64,000 nucleotides of DNA from Dehalococcoidia bacterium (GTDB lineage Bacteria; Chloroflexota; Dehalococcoidia; SHYB01). The DNA lies in NCBI GenBank assembly GCA_965220155.1, contig OZ244810.1, positions 3,445,298-3,509,297 of the forward strand, given 5' to 3'. Shown here in pieces: positions 12,106 to 42,835 of the stretch. The first letter of the stretch is position 1; each line of letters starts with the position of its first letter. Under the pieces are notes generated by a model, which did not search any database, was not told the origin of the DNA, and was given only the letters and a program-made list of their open reading frames with translations. A program made the position numbers and the translations under genes.

Positions 12106-13392
12106 TCATGGGGAGTCGGACGCACGAACCGGGACCTTGGCCGGAGGCCCGGTCCCGTCTTCGGGCACGTTCGGGGTCCTATCGTCGACACGCCTCACGA
12201 TGATGATCGCAATGACCGCGGAAACTAGGAGGCCGACGACGGCAGCCGGCTGCCCAAACCCGAGAGTGGTCGCCACCAATCCCCACATGAGCGGTCCGAT
12301 AATCGAGGACAAGCGCCCGGTCATGCTAAACAGGCCCAGGTATTCGGCTTCCGAGCCTCGGGGGATGAACAGGAGCAGCAGGGGTCGGTCCGACACCCAC
12401 GTCCCGGCCATCCCGATTCCGGTCAGGATGCCTACGGCCCACCAGAGGATACCCGGAAGGCCGAGACTGGGAATAGCGACCCCCAACGCAAAGACAATCA
12501 CCCAGCACGAAAGGGCCGCGATCAGGGTGCGCCTGGGGCCAACTCTGTCTGCCACCATTCCCCAGACCACCCCGGAGGGCGCGGCGACCGCGATGCCGGC
12601 TAGGAAGATGACCTGAGTCAGCCGGACAGATAGGCCAACGGTGTCCGTGGCGTAGAGGATTCCGAATACCGAGGCTGTATTGACCGATAGGGTGAAGAAC
12701 GTCCGCGCCACCAAGAGCTTGCGCAGCCCGGGGTGACCTCGGACTGTGCCGAGCGCCCGCGACAGATGGTCCATCGCCGCTGCCAGGGTGTCCCTCGCGG
12801 GCGGCAATTGGCCGGACGTCCGCGACCGGTCCCTGACTGAGATGATCAACGGAAGAGCCAGGAGCAGGAACACCCCAGCCATGGTCCAGAACACCCAATC
12901 GTAATGCCCGGCTTTCAGGAACACGATAGTGATCCCTACCGCCGCCATCGAGCCGAGGTATCCGACCCCAACCGCAAGACCGCTTACGCGTCCCCGGTTC
13001 TGAGTGGTGCTCACCTCTGGCAGTAGTGCGTTGTAGCAGATCTGGGCGAGGTGAAAACCGGACAGCGCCACGGCGAACAGCGCAAGGGACAAAGAGAGCC
13101 CCGGTAACGCCAAGAAGAGGGTCGCGGCCACCGAAACGACCGTCGCGCCAAGCAGGAACGGGGTCCTTCTTCCCACCTGGTCTGAAATGCTTCCAAACAC
13201 CGGGGCGGCGATTAGGAGGAAAATCATCGTCCCGGTCAGGGTGAAGCCCACATCAGCATCCGTGCCATGTGCAACGTCGGTGACCCACAGGGGAAACGTG
13301 ATGCCGACGATGCCCGTGAGGTACGCTGAGTTGGCCAGGTCGTACAAGACCCACGAGGCGACAGCGGCTCTTCGGGGTCGGGTCTGTGCCAA
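12106..13392 (-). CDS. MFS transporter (UMF1/Atg22-like subfamily)
   Basis: N-terminus WVLYDLANSAY and TM profile. Confidence 0.7.
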   Translation of the reverse strand: MAQTRPRRAAVASWVLYDLANSAYLTGIVGITFPLWVTDVAHGTDADVGFTLTGTMIFLLIAAPVFGSISDQVGRRTPFLLGATVVSVAATLFLALPGLSLSLALFAVALSGFHLAQICYNALLPEVSTTQNRGRVSGLAVGVGYLGSMAAVGITIVFLKAGHYDWVFWTMAGVFLLLALPLIISVRDRSRTSGQLPPARDTLAAAMDHLSRALGTVRGHPGLRKLLVARTFFTLSVNTASVFGILYATDTVGLSVRLTQVIFLAGIAVAAPSGVVWGMVADRVGPRRTLIAALSCWVIVFALGVAIPSLGLPGILWWAVGILTGIGMAGTWVSDRPLLLLFIPRGSEAEYLGLFSMTGRLSSIIGPLMWGLVATTLGFGQPAAVVGLLVSAVIAIIIVRRVDDRTPNVPEDGTGPPAKVPVRASDSP

Positions 13393-13494
13393 GATGGCTG
13401 CTATAGTCGGGCTGGTCGGGAAATTATACTGGTTTCAGGCACAGCCTCGGGGGTCCATTGGCTACAGCTTGGGCGTCCAACGGTCAAGCGCTGG

Positions 13495-13650
13495 CTAGGG
13501 CGTGTTCACACTAGCTGTGAGGCAAAGGCTTGCCAAAGGCGTGGCGTGGCTAAGGTGCCTGGCGGGCAGCGTCTTAGATTCCTCGGCTGCGCCTCGGAAT
13601 GACATGGGGGAGCGCTTTTCGTGTAGCGGGAGCATAGTGTGTTCTGCGCA
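13495..13650. mobile_element. MITE-like repeat, copy B (3' end diverged/truncated)
   Basis: First about 125 bp near-identical to copies A and C; 5' TA flank present; 3' TIR missing. Confidence 0.55.
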
Positions 13651-13756
13651 TTTTGAGTTGCCCTTCGCCCTCGCGAGTCTGTCGACCCCCGTGTGGACGG
13701 CCGCTAATGGGCGACGGCACGCCTCCGGACCGGTACTCAAGAAGAGGTGAAGGCCG

Positions 13757-14644
13757 ATGAAACAGATCGTGTATAGCCATGTCGATGACGCACCCTGGAT
13801 GCACCTGTCCCCACTGGGGGCCGGGGAGCTGTTCAGCAAGGTGGTGTTGGAGCCGCGTCCACGCGTTGCCCAGCTCTGGTATGAGCCCGGATACGTGTTC
13901 CCCGCTCACCGGCATCCCATGGACGAGGTGCTCTATGTTCTGAACGGGGAGATGTCCGTAAGCGGGCATCTCCTCAAAAGGGGCTCATTAGTCTTCATAC
14001 CGAAAGAGACCGTCTATGGTCCAGAGTACACGGGACCATCTGGAGCGCTGTTTCTGAGGGTAGAGCTTTGGGATACCGAGGAAGGTCCACCAGGCGGCCG
14101 GTCCAGCAAGGCCGCATACGAGCCGTGGACCGGTCAGATGGGAAGCGACGGTATGCCGCGGTCTGGAGTCCCCAGGAGCCCCGTCCCAGAAGGGGAAATG
14201 CAGCCAGAGCCGGCCGCGGGGGCCCGCAGCGTCCATGCGGACGACGCAAGGTGGGTCCAGGTCCAGCTCCCGGAAGAGGGGGCTGATCTCTTCATGAGGC
14301 CGTTGCTCACGGGGGCCCCCAGCGTGTCGCAGTTCTGGTACCCGCAGGACTCAGGAGACCATCCACACTCCCATGAGATCGACGAGCTCCGATTCATTTT
14401 GAACGGCGAGATGGACCTGGCCGGCCGGCGTGTCACACCGCGAACAGCCATTTTCGTCCCCAAGAACACGCCGTTCCGCATGACCAACTTCAGCCCTGGG
14501 GGTGTCAAGCTCCTCCGGCTGGAGCTGTGGGATACGCACGCGGGGCGCCCCGAGCGGCCTGGACCTCCGGTCAAGAGGGAGAGCAGGACGTGGGAAGGAC
14601 CCCTCACGGCGGACGGCGTCCCCGATCTGGACGGAAACCGCTAG
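13757..14644 (+). CDS. Bicupin domain protein
   Basis: Two cupin motifs HRHPMDEVLYVLNGEM and HSHEIDELRFILNGEM; GAGGTGAAGG RBS. Confidence 0.7.
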   Translation: MKQIVYSHVDDAPWMHLSPLGAGELFSKVVLEPRPRVAQLWYEPGYVFPAHRHPMDEVLYVLNGEMSVSGHLLKRGSLVFIPKETVYGPEYTGPSGALFLRVELWDTEEGPPGGRSSKAAYEPWTGQMGSDGMPRSGVPRSPVPEGEMQPEPAAGARSVHADDARWVQVQLPEEGADLFMRPLLTGAPSVSQFWYPQDSGDHPHSHEIDELRFILNGEMDLAGRRVTPRTAIFVPKNTPFRMTNFSPGGVKLLRLELWDTHAGRPERPGPPVKRESRTWEGPLTADGVPDLDGNR

Positions 14645-14816
14645 TACATGAGCCCTGCCAGACCGCGAGAGGGTCCTCAGAGGGGTCCTGAGGGGAATCC
14701 GGCAGGACCGCCAGCCCCGCGGCGCCGATGATCTGGCGTTGGCGGAGACGAGCCAATCCGTCGGCTTGCTATAATTACCGGCGGAATTCGCCGCAGACCT
14801 CTTCCTCAGGACTGAA

Positions 14817-15983
14817 ATGACTATCCACACCATCCCGCCTCACGGCGGAACCCTGATCGATCGGCAGCTCAGAGGTCCCGAACGCGATGATGCAGCCCGT
14901 AGAGCGAAAGAGCTGAAACGAATCCAGCTGACCCCAACGGCAGCGTCGGACCTGGAGCTGATCGCGATCGGAGGCTTCAGCCCCCTGACCGGCTTTATGG
15001 GCAGCGCCGATTACACGCGGGTGGTCGAAGAGGCGAGGCTTGCCAGCGGGGTGGTGTGGTCGCTCCCAGTCGTGCTTCCGGTGACCGACGCGGAGGCTGG
15101 GCAAACGAACGTGGGAGACGACGTTGCCCTCGCGGAGAACGGGGCAGTCCTCGCCACCATGAACGTCGCAGAGAAATTCGCCTATGACAAGACACATGAG
15201 GCCGAGCACGTTTACCGCACCACCGATGAGGCCCATCCGGGGGTAGCCCGAGTCTATGGCCAGGGGGACGTCCTATTGGCCGGGGACATCTCGATGATCG
15301 ACCGCCCCGCCTCCTCTCGCATGTTCCCCGAACACCAGCTCCCTCCGGCGGCCAGCCGGCAGGCTTTCTTGGACCGGGGTTGGAAGAGGGTCGTGGCGTT
15401 CCAGACTCGGAACCCGATTCATCGGGCTCACGAGTACATCCAGAAGTGCGCCCTCGAGATGGTCGATGGGCTGTTCCTCCACCCCCTGGTCGGAGAGACC
15501 AAGGGGGACGACATCTCCGCAGCGTTGAGGATGAGGACCTACACGGAGCTCCTATCTCTGTACTACCCCAAGGACAGGACCCTGCTGGGAGTCTTTCCGG
15601 CGGCCATGCGCTACGCCGGTCCTCGCGAGGCTATTTTCCACGCCATCGTGCGGAAGAACTACGGCTGTACGCACCTGATCGTGGGCCGCGATCATGCAGG
15701 GGTGGGCAACTACTACGGGACATATGACGCGCAGCTCATCTTCGACGACTTTCAGCCCGGGGAGCTTGGGATCACCCCTCTTTTCTTCGAGCACACCTTC
15801 TACTGCAAGGCATGCGGCGGCATGGGGTCGAGCAAGACCTGTCCCCACGACTCGGCCCATCACATCACGCTGAGCGGAAGCCAGGTCCGCGCGATGCTTG
15901 GCGGCGGAGAGACCCCCCCCCCGGAATTCACCCGCGCCGAGGTGGCGAGGTTGTTGTCCACCGAGATGGCCACGAAGAGTTGA
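14817..15983 (+). CDS. sat: Sulfate adenylyltransferase (ATP sulfurylase)
   Basis: QTRNPIHRAHE and GRDHAGVG signature motifs. Confidence 0.9.
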   Translation: MTIHTIPPHGGTLIDRQLRGPERDDAARRAKELKRIQLTPTAASDLELIAIGGFSPLTGFMGSADYTRVVEEARLASGVVWSLPVVLPVTDAEAGQTNVGDDVALAENGAVLATMNVAEKFAYDKTHEAEHVYRTTDEAHPGVARVYGQGDVLLAGDISMIDRPASSRMFPEHQLPPAASRQAFLDRGWKRVVAFQTRNPIHRAHEYIQKCALEMVDGLFLHPLVGETKGDDISAALRMRTYTELLSLYYPKDRTLLGVFPAAMRYAGPREAIFHAIVRKNYGCTHLIVGRDHAGVGNYYGTYDAQLIFDDFQPGELGITPLFFEHTFYCKACGGMGSSKTCPHDSAHHITLSGSQVRAMLGGGETPPPEFTRAEVARLLSTEMATKS

Positions 15984-30182: not shown

Positions 30183-31925
30183 ATGACCAGCCAGCCATCG
30201 ACACGCTTCGAACGCAATGTCCCGGTCCCAATGCGGGACGAAACGGTGCTCCGCGCCGATGTCTACCGTCCCGACGACCGTGAGCCCCATCCGGTGCTGG
30301 TGAACCGGACGCCGTATGGCAAGGATGGGGTCCTCGCGTTCCTCAACACTTATCGCGCGGCCCAACGAGGGTATGTCGTCGTCGTCCAGGACTGCCGGGG
30401 CCGGTATGCCTCGGAGGGGGACTGGTACCCCTTCCTCAACGAGGGAGAGGACGGCTACGACACGATCGAGTGGGCCGCCGCCCAGCCATGGTCCACCGGA
30501 AAGGTTGGGATGTTCGGACCCTCGTATATGGGCGTTACCCAATGGCTTTGCGCCATGGCCCAGCCGCCGCACCTAGCGACCATCGCCCCCTCGGTCACCG
30601 CATCTGACTATCACGATGGGTGGGTCTACCAGTCGGGGGCCTTTCTCTTGGGCTTCGCCCTGAGCTGGACGCTATCGTCCTTTGCCGTCTCTCAGGCCCC
30701 GAGGCTGGGGCTTGGCAGGGAGGAGACCGCCGCTCTGCAGCGGGAGCTTGTCCGCGGGGTGGAGGAGCCGGGACCTTCGTACGGCCACCTGCCGGTCAAA
30801 GACTTGCCGCTGCTCCAGCACCCCGGGCTAGCGCCGTACTACCAGGACTGGCTCGAGCATCCCTCCGAGGACGAGTACTGGAAGCGCTGGAAGGTCCAGG
30901 ACTCTTACTCCAAGATCGGAGTCCCGGTTCTCAACATCGGCGGCTGGTACGACATCTTTCTGGGCGGGACCCTGCGCAACTTCACCGGGATGCGCCTGGG
31001 CGGCGGCTCTCCGGAGGCGAGGGAGCATTCGCAACTCATCGTCGGGCCCTGGGCCCATGCGGGGGCGTTCGGCAATGTCGTCGGCGACGTGAACTTCGGC
31101 TCCGGGGCCACCGGCGTTGCCATCGGGCTCGGCGCGAGGATTGGGAAGTGGTTCGATTACTGGCTGAAGGGTGAGCGAAACGGCATAACGGACGAGCCGC
31201 CGGTCACGGTCTTCACCATGGGTGCGGGTCAGTGGAAGACGCTCGAGCGGTGGCCCGGGGCCGACGTCGAATTCGTCAAGTGGTATCTCCACAGCCGGGG
31301 CAAGGCCAACAGCCTGGAAGGTGATGGGGCCCTGACTCCGGAAGCCCCGTCCGAGGAGCAGTTCGACTGCTATCTCTACGACCCGCGCAACCCAGTCCCC
31401 ACAAAAGGGGGCGGCCTCTGCTGCAGCCCCACCATGTCGCCGGGAGGCCCCTTCGACCAGCGCCCTATCGAGAGCCGGCCCGATGTCCTCGTGTACACCT
31501 CCGGCCCTCTCGAGCGCGACATGGAGGTCACGGGGCCCCTGACCGTGAAGCTGTGGGCGTCGTCATCAGCCATCGACACAGACTTTACAGCCAAGCTCGT
31601 GGACGTCCATCCGAACGGGTATGCGCAGAACCTGGCGGATAACCTGGTCCGCGCTCGGTACCGGGAATCCGTAGAAAACCCGGTGTTCCTGGAGCCGGAC
31701 AAGCCCTACGAGTACACCATCGATCTTTACGCTACCAGCAACGTGTTCAAGGCGGGACACGCAATACGGTTGGAGATTTCGAGCAGCAACTTTCCCCGGT
31801 TCGACCGCAATACCAACACGGGGGGTCTCATCGCCAGGGAGCGGGAGACGAGGCCCGCGCTTCAGATGGTCTTCCACGACGTCCAGAGGCCGTCGCACGT
31901 CGTGCTGCCCACCGTTCCGGCGTAG
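30183..31925 (+). CDS. CocE/NonD-family alpha/beta hydrolase (X-Pro dipeptidyl-peptidase S15-like)
   Basis: VLVNRTPYGKD and GPSYMG nucleophile-elbow motifs; about 580 aa with C-terminal beta-sandwich. Confidence 0.8.
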   Translation: MTSQPSTRFERNVPVPMRDETVLRADVYRPDDREPHPVLVNRTPYGKDGVLAFLNTYRAAQRGYVVVVQDCRGRYASEGDWYPFLNEGEDGYDTIEWAAAQPWSTGKVGMFGPSYMGVTQWLCAMAQPPHLATIAPSVTASDYHDGWVYQSGAFLLGFALSWTLSSFAVSQAPRLGLGREETAALQRELVRGVEEPGPSYGHLPVKDLPLLQHPGLAPYYQDWLEHPSEDEYWKRWKVQDSYSKIGVPVLNIGGWYDIFLGGTLRNFTGMRLGGGSPEAREHSQLIVGPWAHAGAFGNVVGDVNFGSGATGVAIGLGARIGKWFDYWLKGERNGITDEPPVTVFTMGAGQWKTLERWPGADVEFVKWYLHSRGKANSLEGDGALTPEAPSEEQFDCYLYDPRNPVPTKGGGLCCSPTMSPGGPFDQRPIESRPDVLVYTSGPLERDMEVTGPLTVKLWASSSAIDTDFTAKLVDVHPNGYAQNLADNLVRARYRESVENPVFLEPDKPYEYTIDLYATSNVFKAGHAIRLEISSSNFPRFDRNTNTGGLIARERETRPALQMVFHDVQRPSHVVLPTVPA

Positions 31926-31996
31926 AGGGGTTGGGGAGCCTATGTTCGAGTTTGATGGTTACGCCGAAGCGGTAAGCCGCTCCTGGTGGGATAGAC

Positions 31997-34069
31997 TCAC
32001 TGCGCGAGATCGGTCAGAAATTCCGACGCGGGCTTGACACCGGTTACGAGGAGATGGTCCCGAGCGCGTGTGCAGGCGACGTAGAGGAGATTCCTTTCCG
32101 TGTTGTAGACCTCCTCCAGGTCTTCCACCTCGGCGATGGACTCGATGCGCGACTGGCTGGGAATGACTTCGTCATCACACGCTATGACGGCGACGGCGCG
32201 GAACTCCAGTCCTTTCGCAAGATGCATCGTGCTCACAGAGACGCCGCCATCCGTGGGGTCTAAACTCTCAGAGAGCAAACGGTGCGGGAGGCCCGCGGCT
32301 TCGATACCGGAGAGTGCGCGTTGAATTTCACCGTCAGACCGAACGAAGACCGCGGTCTCGTCCGCTTTCATCCCTCTGCCGACCAAGTCCTTTAGCCAGT
32401 CCGCCAAGCAACCTGCTTCGCCCTCGACCGTCTCCAGCACCTTTATAACGGGACGGGGACCACTGAATACGGAAACTGTCGAACGACGCTCTTCAGTGTT
32501 GCCGTCGACGTCGGCCAACTCGGGACCCAGGAGGCGGTCCGCCTGATCCCGAATCTGGTGTGACGTCCGATAGTTGATGCGCAGCGTGTGAGAGCGTCCC
32601 CGGATGTCCACCCCCAGGGTCTTCCACGAGAATGGCTGTTGGAAGATGCGCTGACCGAGGTCGCCAGCGAAGAAGAGGCTGTTGCTGCTCCCTGATCCCA
32701 GCACCGCGAGGAACCGTAGCTGGGCTACACTCACGTCTTGGGCTTCGTCAACTACCACGAAGTCGAAGGGGCGACGTTCGCTCCCCTGGAACAGTGAAGC
32801 TAGCTTGTCGTACATCTCGGGATGCGTCATGAGTCCCTTGCTTCTCAGCCCGCTCCGGATGCGTTCGAAAACCGACCAGAGCTCCCGGCGATGACCCTCC
32901 GGCAGCCGTCGTCTGCGTCCAAGGCGCAACACGTCCCGGTAGGCTTCCCAGCTCTCCAACTGCCAATCGTCCACGACCTGTTCCCATTCCGCACTCAAGA
33001 ACTGCCGGGAGAACCTGTCAGAGCCAACTTCAGCGGCGGCTTCCTTAATGAGTTGGGCTATCACTGCCGGGGGCGCCACGGCGGCGGCGCCAAGGTTCCG
33101 CCGGTACAACTGTTGGCCAATGGCGGATATGGAACGCACCTCAACCCTCTCCCCGAGCCGAGGCTCGCCGCTTATCAGGACTCGCAGCTTTGCTCGCAGG
33201 GCGTTCGCCAGGGTGTCCGAAAACGTCGTCAGCAGCACCCTGCCGTGGTCGTTGGCCCGCGCCAGATGCACTGCCCGATGTAGGGCAACCACGGTCTTGC
33301 CGGTACCAGCCGAACCCGAGACTCTGGCCGGGCCACCGAAGTCGCGCTCCACAATATCTCGCTGCGCCGGATGCAAGAATACAGACCACCTCTCCCACGG
33401 GTAGTCGAGGGCCCGAGCGAGCTCTTCGTGGCCGGACACGACCAAAAAGCGGCGTTGGGCATCCGGGTGATCGAAGGGGCCGGTTCCAGCGGGAACCGGC
33501 TGGGGCAGGGGGACCTCTCCACCGGTTGCCAACTGAAGAAGCGCTTCTGCCGCTTCCCCTGGCAGGTGACCGGCCACGTCGAGAATCGTGTCCTCGTTGG
33601 CGTGGCGGACATCGTCCAACCAATCTTGCGGGATGCCATAGCTCAGGAGGCGGCCATCGGACACGCCCGCCAGCAGGGCCGGTTTGGGAGGAGCTTCAAG
33701 CTCCCTGGTGACGTATGTCGGAACCGCGACCTCCTGGACCGTCTCCCGCACCTCGACCAACTGGGCGGCGCCCGTATTCGGATGGGTCTCGAGCCTACGG
33801 CGTTCGGCCCATCTGTAGGCGCGGTCGTGGTGATCGACATAACACAGCAGGACACTGCTCTGCGACCGGTGGACGATGACCCGCAGGTCCTGGCTGACGC
33901 GGACGGACCAGAAGTTGGGGTCCCTGGCTGTGCTCAGCCGGTGGAGCTGATGCCCGGGCTGGGCTGGATTCACCTGGAAATCGAAGGCTACGGTCTTGAC
34001 GGCCCTCTGTTCGTCTCTAGTCAGCCTGGCAAGGCTGTCGATGAAGGTGTCGGCGATGCGGAACTGCAC
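31997..34069 (-). CDS. UvrD/REP-like SF1 helicase with N-terminal RelE/ParE-like domain
   Basis: Walker A GSAGTGKT, Walker B VVVDEAQD, motif VI TMHLAKGLEF. N-terminal ~100 aa show RelE/ParE-like pattern (WSVRVSQDLRVIVHR..VLLCYVDHHDRAY). Confidence 0.7.
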   Translation of the reverse strand: MQFRIADTFIDSLARLTRDEQRAVKTVAFDFQVNPAQPGHQLHRLSTARDPNFWSVRVSQDLRVIVHRSQSSVLLCYVDHHDRAYRWAERRRLETHPNTGAAQLVEVRETVQEVAVPTYVTRELEAPPKPALLAGVSDGRLLSYGIPQDWLDDVRHANEDTILDVAGHLPGEAAEALLQLATGGEVPLPQPVPAGTGPFDHPDAQRRFLVVSGHEELARALDYPWERWSVFLHPAQRDIVERDFGGPARVSGSAGTGKTVVALHRAVHLARANDHGRVLLTTFSDTLANALRAKLRVLISGEPRLGERVEVRSISAIGQQLYRRNLGAAAVAPPAVIAQLIKEAAAEVGSDRFSRQFLSAEWEQVVDDWQLESWEAYRDVLRLGRRRRLPEGHRRELWSVFERIRSGLRSKGLMTHPEMYDKLASLFQGSERRPFDFVVVDEAQDVSVAQLRFLAVLGSGSSNSLFFAGDLGQRIFQQPFSWKTLGVDIRGRSHTLRINYRTSHQIRDQADRLLGPELADVDGNTEERRSTVSVFSGPRPVIKVLETVEGEAGCLADWLKDLVGRGMKADETAVFVRSDGEIQRALSGIEAAGLPHRLLSESLDPTDGGVSVSTMHLAKGLEFRAVAVIACDDEVIPSQSRIESIAEVEDLEEVYNTERNLLYVACTRARDHLLVTGVKPASEFLTDLAQ

Positions 34070-34098
34070 ATACTACTCCTGCTTTAGTTCCAGCGCCC

Positions 34099-35019
34099 TT
34101 AGGACACCACTTGCCAATCTTGACGGGAGGACTCGACCTGGACCAGTCTTTCTTGCACACTGTCCAATCTCTGATGTAGTGATTTCGCGTTGCGTCGATC
34201 AAAGTACTTCGCCAGATATTCCCGAGCCGCTTCTATCACGAACATGCCTACCGGACTGAGAAGCTCACCATCAGTTGAGAGGTGATCGGATTTGGGTTCA
34301 AACCCTTCGTCCTTGGGCAGCAGATGGTTTTTGATCAGATCGACCCAGTCCCCGTGGATCGCGTGGGAAGGGATCCTTTCCAAGACGGTATATGCAGGCC
34401 AGTCGAACCCGATGGCGGTGAGTTTATCTCGGAAACTACCTCCCCAGCTTCCTGTTTTCGGGTTAACCTCTGCGAGTATCACCCGTGACTGTTCGCACGT
34501 GTCGTTTATTGAATTGAGCATACTCTCTTCGATAGCCAGTTTTTCTCCACCTCTGGCCCTTATATTTCCCTGAATAATGTCGTGAAGTTCGCACTCAGCG
34601 ACGAGGCTATTCTTTACGAATCTGTCGTAGATTGCATCATCGTCTTTGAGCAACAAATATCGAAGGTTTACTGCGGATTCAATGATACATCTGTTTAATG
34701 CTTGAACTGTTTCTCCGTGCTCAATATCAGCAGATAACTTAACGACCGATAGCATGAATTTGGATATGCGGACCAGCAATCCCGCACAGATACCCTGGTT
34801 ACGGTCGAACTTGAGTGCATCTCCAGTTGTGCCCATATAAGCGGCGCTACTGACGCAAGTCAATCCGACAGCTTCTTTATATAATTCGTACACCAGCGCT
34901 CCGAATTGGCCATTTGTTCGGCACGCCTCAAGCACTTCATCGGTTACCTCTACCGGAGGTCCCACGAGGTTTTCTATGTCGTCAATAGGTTCCACTACTA
35001 CAACGCCCCTGTTATTCAA
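34099..35019 (-). CDS. Hypothetical protein, markedly lower GC than neighbours (island orphan gene)
   Basis: 306-aa ORF tightly packed between mod and helicase genes (gaps 48 and 29 nt). No recognisable family; weak Rx6H (RIPSHAIH). Confidence 0.55.
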   Translation of the reverse strand: MNNRGVVVVEPIDDIENLVGPPVEVTDEVLEACRTNGQFGALVYELYKEAVGLTCVSSAAYMGTTGDALKFDRNQGICAGLLVRISKFMLSVVKLSADIEHGETVQALNRCIIESAVNLRYLLLKDDDAIYDRFVKNSLVAECELHDIIQGNIRARGGEKLAIEESMLNSINDTCEQSRVILAEVNPKTGSWGGSFRDKLTAIGFDWPAYTVLERIPSHAIHGDWVDLIKNHLLPKDEGFEPKSDHLSTDGELLSPVGMFVIEAAREYLAKYFDRRNAKSLHQRLDSVQERLVQVESSRQDWQVVS

Positions 35020-35067
35020 GTCGCAAGGGTAACGTAACCTTTGACAAACGCTGACCGAACATTTCCT

Positions 35068-37890
35068 TTACTCTACCCGGAAGACCTTCATCACCTCGTC
35101 GCCCAGGTGGTTGATGATCTTGACGGCGATGCGGCCGGTCGACGGCTTGCCAAAGGGGCGGGAGATGCCGCTGTGCAGGGTGGCCCAGGCGTCCGCATTG
35201 ATCTCGGCCTTCAGGGTGGTCTTGAGCGCCTTGTACGGGTCGCTGGCGCCTAGGAAGTAGGCGTGGCGGACGAAGAAGGCCTCCTGGTTGTAGTCGGTGT
35301 CGATGAACCAGCAGGCGATGCCGTCCGGCCCATCGCTGCGCACCTCCCCGGTGTTGGGGTGGAAGACGTCCACACCGTTGACCTTCACTTGAACCTGCCC
35401 GTCGTCGGCGTCGAGGATGTCGATATCCGGCTCTCCGAAAATGACGAACAGGTTGCCCTTACCCGTGTTCTTCAGATCGTCGGCCATGTGCAGGTCCGCG
35501 TTCATGCGGGCCTTGAGCACCGGAATGCGGCCCAGCTTCTCGAACTCCGTCGAATGGGCGTCGTAGTTGAAGGCGCAGGCGATGAGCACGTCGAATCTCG
35601 CGTCGGCGGCCTCCCGCGCCGCTTCCACCAGGTCGGGGCGGGAGACGGTGCCGAACTCCGGACCGACGAAGATGGCGGAGCGCCGCTCGGTGCCGGATCC
35701 CTCGTCTTCCGGTGTCCCTCCCTCCACGTAGCGGCCCTCGGCGCACACCAAGCGGCCCGGCCACGGCGCGAGGGAGGTGAACTCGATACGGTCCTCCCGG
35801 TGCGCCTGCTGCACGCCGGAGACCTTCAGGTTGTCGAGGATGACCTGGGCGAAGTCATACTCCCGCCCATACGCGGCGCCCGGCTCGGCGATGCGGTCGA
35901 AGGTGTCGCCGTGCTCGTCCACCTCCAGCGTCCGGTGGGGCGAGATGCTCTCGACGGTGAAGGGGCCTGCGACGCGGACCTTGCCCCGGTCCTCGTAGGG
36001 CTTGTCGTACAGGTACTCGTAGTCGGCCTTGGCGGCGATGGATGCGTCTATCTCTTTCCGCCGGGCGATGCGGGCCTGCCACCAGCTAGCGTGCGAGTCC
36101 TTTGCGCTCTTGGGCCAGGACTCATCAGCATCTCGGGGAATCTCCCACTCCTCCCATGACGTGCCCATGGCGCTGTTCAGTTTCTCCCGCAGGGGCTCGA
36201 GCTCCTCCTGGGCCGTCTCCCAGATGACGTCTATCTCGGCGTTGTTGGCGATGGCCCGCAGGGTGACGTGGGGCACCCGCTCGTAGACGAACCCCTGGCG
36301 GATGTCCCCGTAGGTGGGAGATTCCGAAGGGGCCTTGCGGGTGACCTCCGCCTCCTTGAGCTGCCCATTGCGGCTGTCGGCCAGCAGGTAGTAGGGGTAG
36401 CGGGCGCCCATGATGCGGGCGCGGGCTAGGGCCAGGGCGACGCGGGAGGTGTCGATGGTGATCCACCGCCGCCCCCACTGCTCAGCGACAAATGCCGTGG
36501 TTCCTCCTCCACAGGTGGGGTCCAGCACCAAGTCACCAGGGTCAGTTACCATGTTCATACACCGAGAGATGACCTTTGGATTAGTCTGGACAACGAAAGT
36601 CCGAGCCTCTGAGAAGCCGCTGACGGAGGTGTCTCGCCAAACATCTTGAATTGGTATAGCTAGAAAGTCGGCGAAGAACCTTTTGTAACGAAGGCTATTT
36701 CCTATTACAAACAACCGACCAGCTCTTCCCAGTCGCCTCATGCCCTCAGGCAGTGTCCGCCACCTCTGGCCGCTCGGTAGTCTGAACATTCGTTCTTGAA
36801 ACTCGAAGTTGAAAAGTGTGGTGCTCGCTGCACCAGCGGTGTATACACTCTGATGGCTGAACAGTCTGCCGTCGTAATTGTGGCCGAGCGCAGCAGCAGC
36901 GACCTCGTTGGATGTCAAAGTTCGGACATCTCCCGGGGTCGATTCAATCCACGTGTACTGGCTCGTTCCCTCTCCTCCGACCTCTTTCAACGCATAAGGC
37001 TTACGGAACTTCGCCTTCGAACGGTCTCTGGCAAACCAAAGGATGTAGTCGTTGACATTTGGCAGAAACTGCGCCTCAAGTCCCGCCGTCTTCATAAACG
37101 GGATCATATTCACGTAGTTGTCTCGCCCAAAGACCTCATCCATAAGCGCCCGGACGCGGTGGACGTTCTCCTCGCCGATCTGCACGAAGACGGAACCAGA
37201 GTCGGTGAGCAGGTCGCGGGCGACAGCAAGGCGGTCGCGCAGGTAGGTCAGGTGGGAGTGGATGCCGTCGCGCCAGGTGTCGCGGAAGGCCCTGACCTGC
37301 TCCGGCTCCCGGGTGATGTGCTCGCGGTTGCCGTCCCGCACGTCCCGGCTGGTGGTGGACCACTGGAAGTTGGAGTTGAACCGGATGCCGTAGGGCGGAT
37401 CGATGTAGATGCACTGGACCCTGCCCCGCAACCCCTCCCGCTCGGCCATCGACGCCATGACCTGGAGGCTGTCGCCCAGGACCATGCGGTTGGACCAGTT
37501 GGCGTCGTGCTGGTAGAACTCGGTCCTGGCGTCCTCGGAGGGCAGGCCGTTGAAGTCGGCGAACATGTCTGTCTGGTAGTCGCCGGAGCCATTGCCGTTC
37601 CTTGACCGGCGCACGAGGTCGTCGATGAGCGCCTTGGGATGCACCCGCTCCTGGATGTACAGAGGCGGCGCGTTGACCACCAGGTCGGACCAGTCCTGCT
37701 CGTCCTTGCCGCGCCAGACGAGCTGCGGGTCCAGGTCGCGGTTGCGCCGCTCGTAGGCGAGCCTGACCGGGCTCTGCTCCTCCTCGCGCATGAGAGGCTG
37801 GTGCTCCGCGCTGGGCAGGTTCCGGCGGGTGGACTCCTTGTGCTTAGTGGCCTCGACGGACTTGCGTTGATTGCCTCGCGCTCTGGGCAT
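35068..37890 (-). CDS. mod: N6-adenine DNA methyltransferase, beta-class (Type III Mod-like) with about 450-aa C-terminal extension
   Basis: Motif IV IYIDPPYG precedes motif I DPTCGGGTTAF (beta order), NYVNMIPF region; 940 aa. Confidence 0.8.
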   Translation of the reverse strand: MPRARGNQRKSVEATKHKESTRRNLPSAEHQPLMREEEQSPVRLAYERRNRDLDPQLVWRGKDEQDWSDLVVNAPPLYIQERVHPKALIDDLVRRSRNGNGSGDYQTDMFADFNGLPSEDARTEFYQHDANWSNRMVLGDSLQVMASMAEREGLRGRVQCIYIDPPYGIRFNSNFQWSTTSRDVRDGNREHITREPEQVRAFRDTWRDGIHSHLTYLRDRLAVARDLLTDSGSVFVQIGEENVHRVRALMDEVFGRDNYVNMIPFMKTAGLEAQFLPNVNDYILWFARDRSKAKFRKPYALKEVGGEGTSQYTWIESTPGDVRTLTSNEVAAAALGHNYDGRLFSHQSVYTAGAASTTLFNFEFQERMFRLPSGQRWRTLPEGMRRLGRAGRLFVIGNSLRYKRFFADFLAIPIQDVWRDTSVSGFSEARTFVVQTNPKVISRCMNMVTDPGDLVLDPTCGGGTTAFVAEQWGRRWITIDTSRVALALARARIMGARYPYYLLADSRNGQLKEAEVTRKAPSESPTYGDIRQGFVYERVPHVTLRAIANNAEIDVIWETAQEELEPLREKLNSAMGTSWEEWEIPRDADESWPKSAKDSHASWWQARIARRKEIDASIAAKADYEYLYDKPYEDRGKVRVAGPFTVESISPHRTLEVDEHGDTFDRIAEPGAAYGREYDFAQVILDNLKVSGVQQAHREDRIEFTSLAPWPGRLVCAEGRYVEGGTPEDEGSGTERRSAIFVGPEFGTVSRPDLVEAAREAADARFDVLIACAFNYDAHSTEFEKLGRIPVLKARMNADLHMADDLKNTGKGNLFVIFGEPDIDILDADDGQVQVKVNGVDVFHPNTGEVRSDGPDGIACWFIDTDYNQEAFFVRHAYFLGASDPYKALKTTLKAEINADAWATLHSGISRPFGKPSTGRIAVKIINHLGDEVMKVFRVE

Positions 37891-37929
37891 GAGCGTCGTT
37901 TTCCTCTCTACTGAACTATCCCGTGAAGA

Positions 37930-38349
37930 TCATTGGGCGCTGAAGGGGTCGAGCACTCGGACGCCCAACCCCTCAACGTCGGAAACGTTTCGAGTTATTA
38001 GGGTGACATCATGTACCATCGCGGTGGCGGCAAGCAGGCCGTCAACCACGGGAACCGGACGAATGGCGGATATCTGTCCCCACGTATCCGCAATCATTTC
38101 GTCGATGGGCAGGATGCGACCGGCAAAACTCAGAGCAGTTGCTCTGAGCCAGCTTTCCAGAACGTTGGTCCGCTGCGGATCACGCCTCCGTCGTATCTGT
38201 TCTATGCCTCTGCGCATCTCTCCAAGCGCCAATACGCTAAGAAATATGTCAGTTTCCTCCACCCCCGCGTACCAAGTTCTAACGTTGATGTCACAGCGGT
38301 CGCCTTTGCGGAGCTCCGAGATGACGTTGGTATCAAGCAGATATGTCAA
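37930..38349 (-). CDS. vapC: PIN-domain ribonuclease, VapC-like toxin (no cognate antitoxin gene)
   Basis: LLDTNVISE N-terminal acidic motif, conserved D/E/D, C-terminal ITRN. TTG start overlaps res stop (TTGA). Confidence 0.7.
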   Translation of the reverse strand: MTYLLDTNVISELRKGDRCDINVRTWYAGVEETDIFLSVLALGEMRRGIEQIRRRRDPQRTNVLESWLRATALSFAGRILPIDEMIADTWGQISAIRPVPVVDGLLAATAMVHDVTLITRNVSDVEGLGVRVLDPFSAQ

Positions 38350-41300
38350 AACTCAATGTCTCTCGGGAACTCGCGGGGTCGGACCAAGTACTCCTCGTCA
38401 ATGGGACAGGATGCGAGCAGCTCCTTGGCGCTCATGGCGCTATAGTCAGGGATTCCTGATTCCCTCACGATCCTCTGTATCAGGTTGTCGAACCCCGTCT
38501 CGATTTTATACACGTCCACAAACTCAGCGAAGGCCCAACGTCCGTATCGACCGAGGCCGTTGACGCCGGGAATCCAATAGGTCTCCATGGCGTCCTTCTT
38601 GGCCTTTGCGTCTTCGCCGCGGTATCCCTTGATCTCCACGACCAGATTCAATGGGTCTTCGCTGCCATCGTCTATCTGGACGATGAAGTCCGGTATGTAC
38701 GTGCGGGTTAGGGAGCCGTACTGGTAGGGCACTTCCAGACCCAGGTTGTGGTTCTTGGCGTATGCTCTCACCCTGGGGTGCGCTTCCGCCACGCGGCAGA
38801 GCTCGGCCTCCCAGTCGCTGTCCAAGATAACCCAATTGAGGTGACATTTGCGGGGGTCCGTCTCCCAGCGGCTCTCTTTGGACGTGCTGAAACTCACGTG
38901 AGCGGTCGAGCCGGTGGGATTGAAGGGATCGAGCATTGCCTTGACAGGTCGTTGGCCGGCGTGAGCGCGGATAATGGCGGCCGCGATGCGCTCGCAGGCC
39001 ATGTCGGCCAGCTCTTGATACATGAGCTGCGCCGGGTAGGCGCCGCCCTTGCAACGCAGGCTGCCGTCGAGCCATTGGCTGACTATCCCTTTCAGCTTGC
39101 CAAAGAGGTGAAGCTTTGGCTCCTCGTTCTGGTCGCGCCATTTCGTGTAGAGGAGCCGCTGGGTGAGGTGCATCAGTAGGGTTGAGCGCCGGAGGTCTCT
39201 CGTGTGCACCAAGTTGAGATCGACGCCTTCACCGATAATGCCTTGGTTCCTCGTGACGGTTGGCCCAGTGAGACCGGGCGTCAGCTCCAAGACAGAGTCT
39301 TCAGTGAACGCGGCGGTCAACTCCTCCTTGGCAAGCTCGACGCGATAACCTCGAACGCGCGGGAAGCTGATTTCCAAGGAGTCGCGGTCGGGGCGAACGG
39401 CTCTGACCTGTATGGTCCGGCGGGGCGGCTGAGGCGGCGCAACGACGGGCTTGGCCGTGAAGTCGAAGGGGATGCCAAGGACCTCGGCGTACTCGACGTT
39501 GAATAGGTCTTGATCGTTCAGGTCGTAGGACTGGCGGCGCAGCGCCCGGCCGATGACCTGCTCACACAGCAGTTGGGTCCCGAAGGCTCGGACACCGAGG
39601 ATATGGGTGACCGTGTTGGCGTCCCAGCCCTCGGTCAGCATCGAGACGGATACGACGCAGCGGATGGAGTCTCCGAGGCTATTCTCTTTGCCGACGGTGT
39701 TCATGACCTCCCTGAGAAGGTCTTGGTCGGGGATGTTGCCGGCCTGGACCTGATCGCCGCTGCGTTGTTGTCTCTCCCGGCGGAACCGCTCGATTTCAGG
39801 AGCGGCGATAGTCCGGAAGTTCTGGTCCAACGCGTCGCCGGACTCGAGCTGTTCGCTGTCTATCAGCAACGTCCGAGGACGGGGCAGATGGTTGCCGTAT
39901 TCGTCGAAGTTGCGGAACAGCTCCAGCCGACCGTTTTCGAGGGAGCTCGAGCCGTCTTCGTTCTCGCGATGAAAGCCCGAGATGTAGTCGTAGACCAGCT
40001 TGGAGGTGGCCGTGTTGTTACAGACGACGATGAAGCACGGTGGGACCGGCACGTCGGCCTGGCGCCACAGATCGAAGGTCTTCTCGTAGTGCCCGTAGAG
40101 CGCCTGCAACGCCGTCTGAAGCTTGGTGGGGATCTCGAGGGGATCGAGATTCTTGGATTTACCGCGGCCCTTCCGCGGCATTTCAGGACGAATATTCTCC
40201 CATAGGGCGCGGAAGGTGGGCATGTCCCCGCCTGGGATGTTGTCGGATACAGGCACGCGCGGCAGCTTGACGATGCCGCACTCGATGGCGTCCATCAGGG
40301 AGAAGTCGTTCACCGTCCAGGGGAAGAGCGTACCCTCGGCATAACCCGAACCGCGCAGGAAGAAAGGCGTTGCGGACAGGTCGATGACCTGCTGGATGCC
40401 CAACTTGCGCTTGACGATTTCGAGTCCTGAAATCCAAACACGGGCCTCTTCGGTGTTCTTTTCGGCCTCTCTCCTGTCTTCACCTTTCAGCGTTTCCTCG
40501 TCATCCTCACCCGGCTTGCGACGGTAGCAGTGATGCCCTTCGTCGTTGAGCACCAGGACGTTCTTGATGCCCATGAGCTCCGGCATCACCCGCTGGACCA
40601 TCTGGCCCTCGGTCTCGATGGTGTTCAGCTCGGGGCCTCTGCCCTGGAGGAGGGCGCGGCCGCCACCGGAGACAGCCAGGACCTCTCGCAACTTGAAAGC
40701 ATGAAAGTTGGTAATGACGATCCTGGCCTTGCCGAGATCGTCGAGCATGTCCGCTGGAACCAGCTCACGACTTGCGTAGTAGCTGTCCGGGTCGTTAGGT
40801 TGCAGGACGCGCAGACGGTCCTTGATGGTGATGCCAGGGGCGACGACGAGAAAGCCGCGGGTGAACTTGCTACTGTTTGGACGCCGGACCGCGTTGATGG
40901 TGTGCCAGGCGATGAGCATCGCCATGACGGTGGTCTTTCCGGTGCCCGTCGCCAGCTTGAGAGCCAAGCGCATGATCTCAGGGTTAGCTTCCGTATTCGC
41001 CGCCTGGAGATTGTCCAAGAACCGCCGCCCTGTCGGCCTCAACTTCGGGGCGACCTCAGTAAGCCAGATGACCGTTTCCGCCGCCTCAATCTGGCAGAAG
41101 AAGGGACGCAGGCTGCTGAAGCTGTGGTGCCGCCAGTGTTGCAGCAGCCGAGCGGTCTCGGGCGTGACGCCCCAGTCGTTCGAACTCGGAATGGCCCGCC
41201 AGGCGTCCACCTGCTGGCGGATGCCGTTAACAACGGCTGTAGTGGCCTCGTATTGCTGGTGCTCAGTCGATAGCCCTTTGCCTTCGTCAAACACGAAGCC

Positions 41301-41474
41301 CCGCTGAAGCGCCCTGCGCTTGCGCGGCTTTGGGATTGGCGTGATGAATTCCGCCTTGCGTCGATAGTCGACTATCTGTTGCGTCGGCTGGCCCTGGGCA
41401 TCCAATTCCCAGTGCCTCTTTGGATACTCATAAGGGGAGTTCAGTATGGGACTGTCGAAGAATCGCTCTTCCAT
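38346..41474 (-). CDS. res: Type III restriction endonuclease Res-like subunit (SF2 helicase plus C-terminal PD-(D/E)xK nuclease)
   Basis: Walker A TGTGKT, DEGHH (DEAH-like) motif II, C-terminal PDF..VVEIKGY (D..ExK) motif; N-terminus typical of T3 Res. Confidence 0.8.
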   Translation of the reverse strand: MEERFFDSPILNSPYEYPKRHWELDAQGQPTQQIVDYRRKAEFITPIPKPRKRRALQRGFVFDEGKGLSTEHQQYEATTAVVNGIRQQVDAWRAIPSSNDWGVTPETARLLQHWRHHSFSSLRPFFCQIEAAETVIWLTEVAPKLRPTGRRFLDNLQAANTEANPEIMRLALKLATGTGKTTVMAMLIAWHTINAVRRPNSSKFTRGFLVVAPGITIKDRLRVLQPNDPDSYYASRELVPADMLDDLGKARIVITNFHAFKLREVLAVSGGGRALLQGRGPELNTIETEGQMVQRVMPELMGIKNVLVLNDEGHHCYRRKPGEDDEETLKGEDRREAEKNTEEARVWISGLEIVKRKLGIQQVIDLSATPFFLRGSGYAEGTLFPWTVNDFSLMDAIECGIVKLPRVPVSDNIPGGDMPTFRALWENIRPEMPRKGRGKSKNLDPLEIPTKLQTALQALYGHYEKTFDLWRQADVPVPPCFIVVCNNTATSKLVYDYISGFHRENEDGSSSLENGRLELFRNFDEYGNHLPRPRTLLIDSEQLESGDALDQNFRTIAAPEIERFRRERQQRSGDQVQAGNIPDQDLLREVMNTVGKENSLGDSIRCVVSVSMLTEGWDANTVTHILGVRAFGTQLLCEQVIGRALRRQSYDLNDQDLFNVEYAEVLGIPFDFTAKPVVAPPQPPRRTIQVRAVRPDRDSLEISFPRVRGYRVELAKEELTAAFTEDSVLELTPGLTGPTVTRNQGIIGEGVDLNLVHTRDLRRSTLLMHLTQRLLYTKWRDQNEEPKLHLFGKLKGIVSQWLDGSLRCKGGAYPAQLMYQELADMACERIAAAIIRAHAGQRPVKAMLDPFNPTGSTAHVSFSTSKESRWETDPRKCHLNWVILDSDWEAELCRVAEAHPRVRAYAKNHNLGLEVPYQYGSLTRTYIPDFIVQIDDGSEDPLNLVVEIKGYRGEDAKAKKDAMETYWIPGVNGLGRYGRWAFAEFVDVYKIETGFDNLIQRIVRESGIPDYSAMSAKELLASCPIDEEYLVRPREFPRDIEF

Positions 41475-41594
41475 TTCAACCGACCTCGCGAGCGCTATTC
41501 GTCATTCTCACCCGAAACCAACGACCCGCTTTCTCCAATGCATCAATATCGGGCTTCGGGACCCAAGCCGCCTTTTGAAGAGGGGTTGGGGAGC

Positions 41595-42737
41595 CTACCC
41601 CGCGGCCCCGAGCCCCAGGGCGCCGCGGACCTCTTCGGCTACGAGGTAGGCGGCGGTGCGCTCGGGGGCGTCTCCCATTCTCAGGAGGTTCTTGGTGAAG
41701 CCTACCGCCAGGCCGGTATCCGGGTCGGCGAAGCCGATCGAGCCGCCAGCGCCCGGGTGACCGAATGCCCCGGGCGGGCCCATAGCGGAGAGGGCGCCGC
41801 CACCCAGGAAATAGCCCATCCCTTTACGAGTGGGCTGGCCGATGACCACGTCCAGCTCGTCGGTCTGGAATGTCCGGGCGGTCTCGACCCGGTCGGCGGT
41901 CAGCAGCCGGGCTCCCCCCAGGGCCCCCGCGCCGGCCAGCATCGCATAATGCCGGGCGATGCCCCGGGCGCTCATGATTCCTCCAGCCCCGGGGATGGAG
42001 GCGCGGCGAACATCGGGACGGTTGAAGATTTTGCCGGCGGTGGTGACGGCCCGAGGGATCGCCCGCATGAGAAGAGAATCAGGGGCCGGCGGCGGCGCGT
42101 CCGGCGGCGGCGGGGCGTTCCGAAGAGTGGCCACCCTGCCCTCGACCGTGTCAGGGATGCCGAGGTACAAGCCTTCGATCCCCAGGGGTCGGCATATCTC
42201 GTCCTGCACAAACTGTGAGATTGGCCTGCCGTCGATTCGCCGGACGACCTCCCCGAGGACCCAGCCGAAGGTGTAGCCGTGGTAGCCGGTCTTGGTGCCG
42301 GGCTCCCAAAGGGGCTCCATGGCAGCCAATGCCTGGCACATTCCGTTCCAATCGCACATCATCTCCGGGGTGGCGCCGTCCGGCATCTGAGGAATCCCGA
42401 TCCGATGAGTCAGGCCGTCTCGCACGGTGGCCCGGTGTTTGCCGTTCTGTCCGAACTCCGGCCAGTATTCCTTGATTGGCGTGTCATACTCCAAGCGGCC
42501 GCGGTCGGCCAGCATGTGGATGCAAGTTGCCGTGATTCCCTTGGTCGTCGAGAACACCGTGAAGAGGGTCTCTCCGTCCACGGGGCGGCCCGTGTCCTGA
42601 TCCGCAAGCCCCGCCCAGGCATCGACAACGAGCTCTCCATCAAGGTAGGCGGCGGCTTGAAGCCCCATCTCCTCCCCGGACTCCACCAGCGTTTCGAGCA
42701 CTATTCTTACCCGTCGGGTCGCCTGTTCATCCACCAT
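41595..42737 (-). CDS. Beta-lactamase-family serine hydrolase
   Basis: S-x-x-K motif FSTTKG, class C/esterase-like length. Confidence 0.75.
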   Translation of the reverse strand: MVDEQATRRVRIVLETLVESGEEMGLQAAAYLDGELVVDAWAGLADQDTGRPVDGETLFTVFSTTKGITATCIHMLADRGRLEYDTPIKEYWPEFGQNGKHRATVRDGLTHRIGIPQMPDGATPEMMCDWNGMCQALAAMEPLWEPGTKTGYHGYTFGWVLGEVVRRIDGRPISQFVQDEICRPLGIEGLYLGIPDTVEGRVATLRNAPPPPDAPPPAPDSLLMRAIPRAVTTAGKIFNRPDVRRASIPGAGGIMSARGIARHYAMLAGAGALGGARLLTADRVETARTFQTDELDVVIGQPTRKGMGYFLGGGALSAMGPPGAFGHPGAGGSIGFADPDTGLAVGFTKNLLRMGDAPERTAAYLVAEEVRGALGLGAAG

Positions 42738-42791: not shown

Positions 42792-42835
42792 GGTCCTCCA
42801 GATTACCCGGAGCGGTCCTCCAGATCACCCGGAGC
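42792..42835. repeat. Tandem 22-bp direct repeat (ggtcctccaga(t/c)tacccggagc x2) in the hydratase-hydrolase intergenic spacer
   Basis: Read directly. Confidence 0.6.

Follow-up and report, generated by a model that had tools for sequence, protein, structure and literature searches.

Type III restriction-modification (R-M) systems such as EcoP1I and EcoP15I are canonically encoded by two genes in the order mod-res, that is, by a methyltransferase (Mod) and a restriction endonuclease (Res). Their cleavage requires two unmethylated sites in inverse orientation, and Mod hemimethylates the DNA. An R-M operon can also harbor a toxin: the anticodon nuclease PrrC is kept latent by its physical association with the Type Ic enzyme EcoprrI and is released when a phage factor attacks that enzyme. 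PrrC is a nuclease of the ABC-ATPase/HEPN type and carries no antitoxin-derived tether. In VapBC toxin-antitoxin pairs, the structures of Shigella VapBC, Rickettsia VapBC2, FitAB and M. tuberculosis VapBC5 show how the C-terminal segment of the antitoxin folds around the toxin and blocks access to its active site. Embedded defense genes have been described in Hma, BREX, DISARM and Type I R-M loci, according to the passages available from two reports (Payne et al., PMC8565338; bioRxiv 10.1101/2024.01.29.577857). Here, we compare with these systems a defense locus found in a 64,000-nucleotide stretch of the genome of a Dehalococcoidia bacterium (contig OZ244810.1, positions 3,445,298 to 3,509,297), which is called the window in the following.

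We consider it likely that the window holds an inserted island with a widespread three-gene Type III-like R-M operon, two cargo slots within this operon, and a PIN toxin neutralized by a tail of Res. A sequence-only reading of the window had proposed a horizontally acquired defense island of five co-directional genes on the minus strand, which we judge to be right; an open reading frame (ORF) check recovers all five genes. What it overlooked is the most interesting feature: PIN lacks an antitoxin gene of its own, since the putative toxin-binding segment of an antitoxin forms the C-terminal end of Res. The genes and the two domains of main interest are:

38346-41474, minus strand: Res, 1042 residues, first core gene
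38349-38435, minus strand: C-terminal tail of Res, MSAKELLASCPIDEEYLVRPREFPRDIEF, past the end of the family model (residue 998)
37930-38349, minus strand: PIN, 139 residues, cargo of slot 1
35068-37890, minus strand: Mod, 940 residues, second core gene
34099-35019, minus strand: DUF5677 ORF, 306 residues, cargo of slot 2
31997-34069, minus strand: RelE-fold-UvrD helicase, 690 residues, third core gene
33785-34069, minus strand: RelE/ParE-fold domain, helicase residues 1-95

Res and PIN overlap by 4 nt, and the distances between PIN and Mod, Mod and DUF5677, and DUF5677 and helicase are 39, 48 and 29 nt, respectively. The mosaic base composition that had been remarked on is also real, with a GC content of 0.50 across the 306-residue ORF and 0.60-0.66 in the flanks.

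The predicted chemistry of Mod, together with the domain layout of Res, marks the locus as a Type III-like R-M system. As in EcoP1I and EcoP15I, Mod is a beta-class amino-methyltransferase of the N6/N4 type: it matches PF01555 (7.5e-29), displays the beta-class motif order with DPPY (motif IV) before motif I (CIYIDPPYG near residue 165, DPTCGGGTT near residue 455), and finds its best PDB matches, and thereby its nearest solved relatives, among Type III Mods (6k0w, 5.9e-14; EcoP15I, 4zcf, 2.3e-11). The match to the PADLOC MTase_III model PDLC03632 runs from end to end (1357 bits). Its length of 940 residues, about 300 more than in canonical Type III systems, had been taken for an oddity; it is real, but this full-length match makes it typical of the Mod family, and a long Mod is found in all related loci. 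Res combines a helicase-like ATPase of superfamily 2 (SF2) with a C-terminal PD-ExK nuclease, and the respective motifs GTGKT, NDEGHH and IPDF...VVEIKG can be read in its translation. It is a clear member of the BPTD_3080 family of restriction endonucleases (NCBIfam NF046055; 1334.9 bits at a cut-off of 800, with residues 6-998 covering positions 1-969 of the 970 in the model), for which our literature search found no paper using the name. Res also matches PF04851 (30 bits, cut-off 22.5) and, under the cut-off of 23.4, PF19778 (20.1 bits). Its best 120 homologues are about 73-95% identical. Apart from the length of Mod, the locus differs from Type III R-M in its gene order (res, mod, helicase), in the helicase as an almost obligate third partner, and in the cargo embedded between the subunits.

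To what extent do these genes belong together? Scanning one genome per species with Res generated a set of 80 Res-anchored loci; these and further loci are referred to by L numbers below. The 80 loci come mostly from Dehalococcoidia/Chloroflexota, but also from Desulfobacterales, Planctomycetes, Acidobacteria, Latescibacterota, Nitrospirota and others, and Res identity amounts to 69-77% throughout. The five window proteins were mapped onto these loci by tblastn. Wherever more than one of the three genes was detected, they are co-directional and follow the order Res, Mod, helicase; the res-before-mod order, previously listed as unusual, is common to all related loci. Mod is found in all loci that have enough DNA, and a full-length helicase of 57-68% identity follows downstream in 44 of the 62 that have at least 9 kb of downstream DNA. 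The reverse approach, in which 80 metagenome loci were collected with the helicase, places Mod upstream in 46 of 47 loci with at least 4 kb of upstream DNA; where 9 kb or more of upstream DNA is available, 21 of 22 loci have both Res and Mod there. Homologues amount to at least 8000 clusters for Res (E<=1e-10) and at least 8000 for the helicase. A cargo-free three-gene operon with abutting genes lies on the conjugative plasmid p1NCPPB4222 (NZ_CP091148, 18967-27027) of Pseudomonas avellanae, where the trio is annotated in RefSeq as BPTD_3080 family restriction endonuclease, site-specific DNA-methyltransferase and 3'-5' exonuclease, and helicase homologues are present on fifteen E. coli plasmids. 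In the annotation of BPTD_3080 loci the helicase is named '3'-5' exonuclease' or 'UvrD-helicase domain-containing protein' and is not assigned a role. Res, Mod and the RelE-fold-UvrD helicase are thus a conserved three-gene operon across many phyla, and their linkage holds in both directions. The sequence-only reading had counted the helicase, PIN and the 306-residue ORF as extra genes, to be doubted if homologous islands always lacked them: the helicase is almost always there, PIN and DUF5677 are sometimes.

The third core gene combines two distinct parts. Its motor matches the UvrD N- and C-terminal domains with the superfamily 1 (SF1) motifs GSAGTGKT, VVVDEAQD, TMHLAKGLEF and YVACTRAR intact. 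The fusion to a toxin-fold domain, already suspected from the sequence, is corroborated by a fold search. In an AlphaFold2 model of residues 1-232 (pLDDT 79.5), residues 1-95 adopt a beta-alpha-alpha-beta4-alpha topology, for which Foldseek ranks YoeB (2a6r), RelE (2khe, 3bpq, 3g5o), YafQ and ParE on top of the PDB matches (probability 1.0, target TM-score 0.67-0.76). A phmmer search of the N-terminus against PDB sequences gave no match, and JGI names many of the helicase homologues 'mRNA-degrading endonuclease RelE'. Within 42 homologues H43, D50, H67, H80, H81, Y85 and R91 are invariant, and R57 and R63 are more than 90% conserved. By analogy with the catalytic residues of YoeB and YafQ, the conserved His, Arg and Tyr would be compatible with an active RNase. 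While the domain thus shares fold and conserved residues with RelE, YoeB, YafQ and ParE, it is fused to a helicase instead of being a free toxin of about 90 residues with its own antitoxin, and no antitoxin gene adjoins the helicase. Nearly all of the best 120 helicase homologues are exactly 690 residues long. Residues 41-522, which include part of the RelE-like domain, match the PHROGs family phrog_1967 'DNA helicase' (7.7e-83); relatives of the helicase are therefore carried by phages or prophages as well.

That this composition corresponds to no named system had been suggested before, and none was found by our PADLOC scan and literature searches; the scan covers all matches for Res, PIN and DUF5677 and the best 25 for Mod and helicase. 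A limited literature search likewise returned no earlier account of the Res-Mod-RelE/UvrD combination, nor of a restriction subunit with a fused antitoxin tail. An identity with Hma, which the available part of PMC8565338 defines as a helicase, an m5C methyltransferase and an ATPase, was rejected, as the window Mod is of the N6/N4 and not the m5C type and no Hma model is among the PADLOC matches listed. Gabija was also considered: the helicase motor resembles GajB in matching UvrD and GajB models, the latter only partially, and there is no GajA-like partner gene in the island.

The core operon is interrupted at two positions. Across the loci, the gap between Res and Mod varies from 22 nt to 3 kb (slot 1) and the gap between Mod and helicase from 3 nt to about 5 kb (slot 2). 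Plus-strand ORFs within these gaps were clustered and subsequently scanned with Pfam. Slot 1 contains several PIN classes, NYN, Fic, Schlafen-AlbA_2 together with HATPase_c_4, Bro-N, DUF3800, DUF1828 and HTH proteins, and, in the sister locus L081, an MNT/HepT pair. Slot 2 contains DUF5677 (5 loci), GmrSD, a 926-residue SMC/AAA_21 ATPase, other AAA ATPases, AlbA_2 and unknowns. Both slots are hot spots for embedded unrelated defense or toxin genes. In L048, slot 1 (13186-15300) holds three tandem PIN modules, with a tail-type PIN first and two antitoxin-PIN pairs of other classes behind it. The arrangement is reminiscent of the embedded-defense loci introduced above, in which variable genes are nested between core genes as well, and the repertoires overlap in GmrSD-like proteins, ABC/AAA ATPases, PIN, NYN and HEPN, as far as the retrieved passages of those papers report them. 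A difference is that these passages contain no case of a core subunit that has absorbed the antitoxin of its cargo.

The clearest illustration of such an exchange is provided by L081, the locus of a sister strain. Its operon is flanked by the same esterase and CocE/NonD genes as in the window. Identity is 96.5% from the flank to window position 38508, at about Res residue 989, and 95.4% from the helicase onward. The Res of L081 has 1017 residues and is tail-less, its slot 1 holds MNT and HepT, and its slot 2 three other genes, with neither slot related to that of the window. A near-identical core with unrelated slots implies that the Res tail with PIN, on the one hand, and DUF5677, on the other, are exchanged cassettes:

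37865-38507, minus strand: slot-1 cassette (3' end of res with the tail, PIN and spacer), no counterpart in L081; identity resumes in Mod at 37864
34069-35068, minus strand: slot-2 cassette (DUF5677), swapped in L081

Variation is also found within Mod (940 residues in the window, 1084 in L081), which is 91-95% identical except for two segments at 36595-37120 and 35383-35422 that have no blastn match. The replaced central segment is probably an exchanged target-recognition region, and the two strains would hence differ in methylation specificity.

It is the slot-1 cassette that connects cargo and core. About 40 of the best 120 Res homologues are 1040-1057 residues long and end in KELLA(A/S)(A/C)P(L/I)..(I/Y)(D/L).RPR.(F/L)PR(D/N)I(E/D)(F/L). 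The others, including the closest one with 95% identity, are mostly about 1009-1029 residues long and lack this tail, so that within the BPTD_3080 family an antitoxin-like tail is confined to a subset of members. Directly behind the tail, the TTG start of PIN overlaps the TGA stop of res (TTGA), which bears out the translational coupling that had been proposed for the two genes. In each of the 25 loci with this PIN class, PIN begins at -4, -17 or +2 nt relative to the Res stop, so that no further gene would fit between the two.

Where does the tail come from? The window PIN matches PF01850 (2.4e-14), its catalytic acids D6, E44 and D103 are each at least 95% conserved among 24 sequences, and it is 45-55% identical to annotated plasmid VapC toxins. 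Its best plasmid match is a VapC of Acuticoccus (54% identity), and the small gene upstream, in the antitoxin position and annotated as hypothetical, ends in GGLKALLTAAPLDDIDLERQRDLGRDVSL, the same motif as the Res tail (antitoxin end LKALLTAAPLDDIDLERQRDLGRDVSL as compared to Res tails FKELLAAAPLEGIDLSRPRELPRNIEF). On the Allochromatium vinosum plasmid pALVIN02 (NC_013862, 3808-4445; L086), a VapC 55% identical to the window PIN and its small upstream gene, also annotated as hypothetical and ending in ...DLERPRDFGRRDVEWDI, sit between the Type I genes hsdM and hsdS. The same toxin lineage is therefore embedded in Type I R-M operons, too. The end encoded by this small gene is less similar to the Res tail than that of Acuticoccus. 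These sequence comparisons show homology between the last ~30 Res residues and the C-terminal portion of free antitoxins of the VapB type.

The distribution of the tail follows that of the toxin. Among the 80 Res-anchored loci, 25 have both the tail and an adjacent PIN, 4 have the tail only, none has PIN only, and 51 have neither (Fisher p=6.5e-17). The pN/pS ratio of the tail is 0.24-0.31 with pS near saturation, which indicates purifying selection; indels have probably shifted the alignment of the control regions, whose positions were taken relative to the stop codon, and only the tail value is usable. Tail distance correlates with PIN distance (Spearman rho 0.54, Mantel p=0.0005), as compared to 0.22 with Res-core distance. 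Judged by sequence covariation, the tail travels and co-evolves with the PIN gene. In light of the known VapBC structures, we infer that Res binds and neutralizes PIN and thus probably doubles as its antitoxin.

Compared to a classical VapBC pair, the likeness lies in the identity of PIN with VapC, in a toxin gene that follows and overlaps the 'antitoxin' frame, and in a Res tail that resembles the antitoxin C-terminus. The difference is that the window locus has neither a free antitoxin nor an antitoxin DNA-binding domain: no separate upstream antitoxin gene with such a domain was found for PIN at the locus, nor any other tail-like sequence in the window. As the tail is the C-terminus of the 1042-residue Res, the autoregulation of VapB would be lost and expression would follow the R-M operon. 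A free antitoxin with this tail (type 1) was present neither in the window nor in the fetched loci, and was found only via the plasmid VapC homologues. An internal start producing a free tail peptide was also considered and rejected as a general mechanism, since other tails do not conserve the in-frame Met that precedes SAKELL. With PrrC-EcoprrI the locus shares the gene of an RNA-cleaving toxin that is embedded in an R-M operon and proposed to be held by the restriction enzyme. It differs in the nature of the proposed tether, a VapB tail joined covalently to Res, and in that an activation by phage factors is hypothetical.

Fusions of this kind are not restricted to a single antitoxin. An antitoxin with the signature '...WLADAGGSxP...PRRRSE' is a separate gene in L040, L048 and L061, and is fused to Res with PIN directly downstream in L073 and L083. 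A C7-type antitoxin is separate in L048, L060, L072 and L077, and fused in frame to Res in L045, L052 and L062, where PIN overlaps by 14 nt. A third type ('...AMRVxxELQG...RKxTRDEMNER') stands alone in L039 and L051, and is fused to Res without PIN in L057 and L082. In L045, L052 and L062, the Res C-terminus (about 13000-13393) shows a type-2 'WLSDAGGGEP..SRRRSE' piece followed by the C7-like antitoxin, and only the PIN of the second follows. These tandem tails look like a stratified record of successive cassette insertions. In L004, L007 and L016, the type-1-tailed Res is followed in slot 1 (about 13220-14036) by a protein of 241-269 residues with a C-terminal NYN (PIN-like) domain; L004 additionally has a 58-residue ORF overlapping the Res stop.

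How could such a system work? Mod would methylate and so protect the host DNA, and Res, as ATPase and PD-ExK nuclease, would destroy unmethylated incoming DNA together with the helicase. The PIN RNase would be made by translational coupling to Res and kept inactive by binding to the Res tail. Removal or truncation of Res, be it by a frameshift or nonsense mutation, by loss of the island, by proteolysis or possibly by phage anti-restriction blockage, would free the toxin. The freed toxin would then arrest the cell, either as an addiction lock on the easily inactivated 3-kb res gene or as a backup arm of abortive infection. We class the locus as R-M with embedded toxin-antitoxin and defense cargo, whose striking part is the recurrent fusion of Res and antitoxin. 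A bolder view, which we put forward only tentatively, regards the restriction enzyme itself as an antitoxin. Tails would have been captured repeatedly from at least three antitoxin families, two of them still with their cognate PIN, and the tethered RNase would report on the integrity or activity of Res and guard it within an undescribed three-component system that needs the helicase. Cells in which Res is lost, truncated or disabled, for instance by phage anti-restriction proteins, would be killed or arrested.

Several observations weigh against the reading of the locus as a Type III-like system with a tail-neutralized toxin. Res lies outside the canonical Type III family: it reaches 24.3 bits with the model NF012027 (cut-off 564) and partial matches of 13-24 bits with the PADLOC REase_III models, and no PDB sequence matches it. 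As the similarity to characterized Type III Res enzymes is weak, its cleavage mechanism is assumed. What suggests a role of the helicase in restriction is linkage only, and 18 of the 62 Res-anchored loci with sufficient DNA have no helicase within 10 kb. No promoter-like sites were found in the window, and terminator-like sites are at chance level. Finally, tails of three types occur without a cognate PIN (L004, L007, L016, L044, L057, L082), and the type-2 segment persists in L045, L052 and L062. A tail can therefore be a harmless relic, and its presence alone is no proof of function.

This last point leads to the alternative that survives best, even though we regard it as unlikely: the Res tail could be a non-functional scar of the cassette, and PIN could be inactive, otherwise neutralized or tolerated. 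The orphaned tails suggest that remnants of fusions are tolerated, and the stacked remnants in L045, L052 and L062 fit the same picture. Where PIN is present, however, the tail is under purifying selection and co-varies with PIN, and its motif is that of the free antitoxins of 54%-identical VapCs. Furthermore, the catalytic acids of PIN are kept, neither the window nor the space between the genes offers another antitoxin candidate, and several antitoxin families were fused independently. Lower still we rate the chance that the helicase is an independent single-gene defense merely adjoining the R-M genes. Its best PADLOC matches, a partial one to GajB and one to a 'NERD+UvrD' candidate, would agree with this, as would the Res-anchored loci without it. 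In addition, a RelE-domain protein in Hma systems (HEC-07) was picked and tested as a defense candidate, according to the available part of the preprint (bioRxiv 10.1101/2024.01.29.577857). On the other hand, Mod lies directly or closely upstream in almost all helicase-anchored loci and so does Res, the genes often abut with a gap of 3 nt, and the helicase is conserved in length and sequence across phyla as much as Res.

That all five genes form one integrated, co-evolved and layered defense module, as the sequence-only reading had it, is highly improbable and largely refuted by the comparative data. While the genes are tightly packed and co-directional, and the five-gene layout with tailed Res, PIN, Mod, DUF5677 and helicase recurs in the Dehalococcoidia loci L008, L009 and L021 (and similarly in L092, where the 136-residue gene in slot 1 is not matched by the window PIN), L081 replaces PIN and DUF5677 at the same site within a 95-96% identical core, only Res, Mod and helicase are conserved, the PIN class occurs in 25 and DUF5677 in 5 of the 80 Res-anchored loci and neither in the 80 helicase-anchored ones, DUF5677 also occurs by itself in housekeeping surroundings or in unrelated islets of toxin-antitoxin genes, and cargo-free operons exist.

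If the reading as a three-gene operon with exchangeable cargo is true, a very widespread Type III-like R-M family, with at least 8000 clusters in many phyla and members on Pseudomonas and E. coli plasmids, would work with a third gene that annotation pipelines ignore. The principle of embedded defense known from Hma, BREX, DISARM and Type I systems would then extend to this family, with a clean cassette swap between near-identical strains. The Res-antitoxin fusion offers a concrete and testable link between a restriction enzyme and a latent toxin. It bears on the idea, associated with PrrC-EcoprrI, of backup suicide modules or addiction locks in R-M systems.

The cargo of slot 2 had been described as an orphan of no recognizable family. 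It does have one: the 306-residue ORF matches Pfam DUF5677 (PF18928; 1.6e-13, 51.5 bits, cut-off 27.1). The family is small, and all listed homologues carry PF18928. Judged by these homologues, the true start would lie about 8 codons (42 codons according to one gene call) inside the longest ORF. The structural model is all-alpha (pLDDT 88.5), and its structural matches are generic helical bundles only. DUF5677 stands alone among housekeeping genes in L089-L091, and in L088 it belongs to an islet with two Phd-PIN pairs, MNT and an AAA_15/21 ATPase, without an R-M system. It is an independent single-gene cargo. In L094 (8831-10144), which also lacks an R-M system, DUF5677 is bordered on one side by what is left of the Mod C-terminus (28 residues) and on the other by the first 64 helicase residues. 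This fits the scar of a decayed system, or a cassette that has moved or decayed with pieces of the flanking core genes as homology arms. A large serine recombinase lies about 7 kb from DUF5677 in this locus, and a preprint describes the DUF5677 domain as enriched near defense islands marked by serine recombinases.

Region 31943-41578 is an inserted island of about 9.6 kb between the copies of a 19-nt direct repeat:

31924-31942, no strand assigned: left copy of the repeat AGAGGGGTTGGGGAGCCTA, beginning at the second base of the CocE TAG stop
41579-41597, no strand assigned: right copy of the repeat AGAGGGGTTGGGGAGCCTA, its last 3 nt (CTA) being the esterase stop codon

To the left lies a plus-strand gene for a CocE/NonD hydrolase (TAG stop at 31923-31925), and to the right a convergent minus-strand esterase gene. 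The pair is perfect; a search of the window allowing up to 3 mismatches gives these 2 matches, and none of 100 shuffles reaches 2. The sister locus L081 has kept both copies, each with an identical one-base variant (an extra C). Since each copy overlaps one flanking stop codon, a single copy would make up the entire spacer expected at the empty site. Such an arrangement suggests an insertion that duplicated its target, or an att-like core. When the products of the two flanking genes were looked up by exact match, no empty insertion site was found; the look-ups gave one short contig of the same arrangement or nothing. In 57 other complete loci, no flanking direct repeats were seen, and shared words do not exceed 12 nt. 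There is no integrase inside the island and no tRNA or Rfam match in the window. Beyond the right border, just upstream of the esterase start (42737), a 22-nt unit GGTCCTCCAGATTACCCGGAGC occurs in two tandem copies that are 95% identical (42792-42835).

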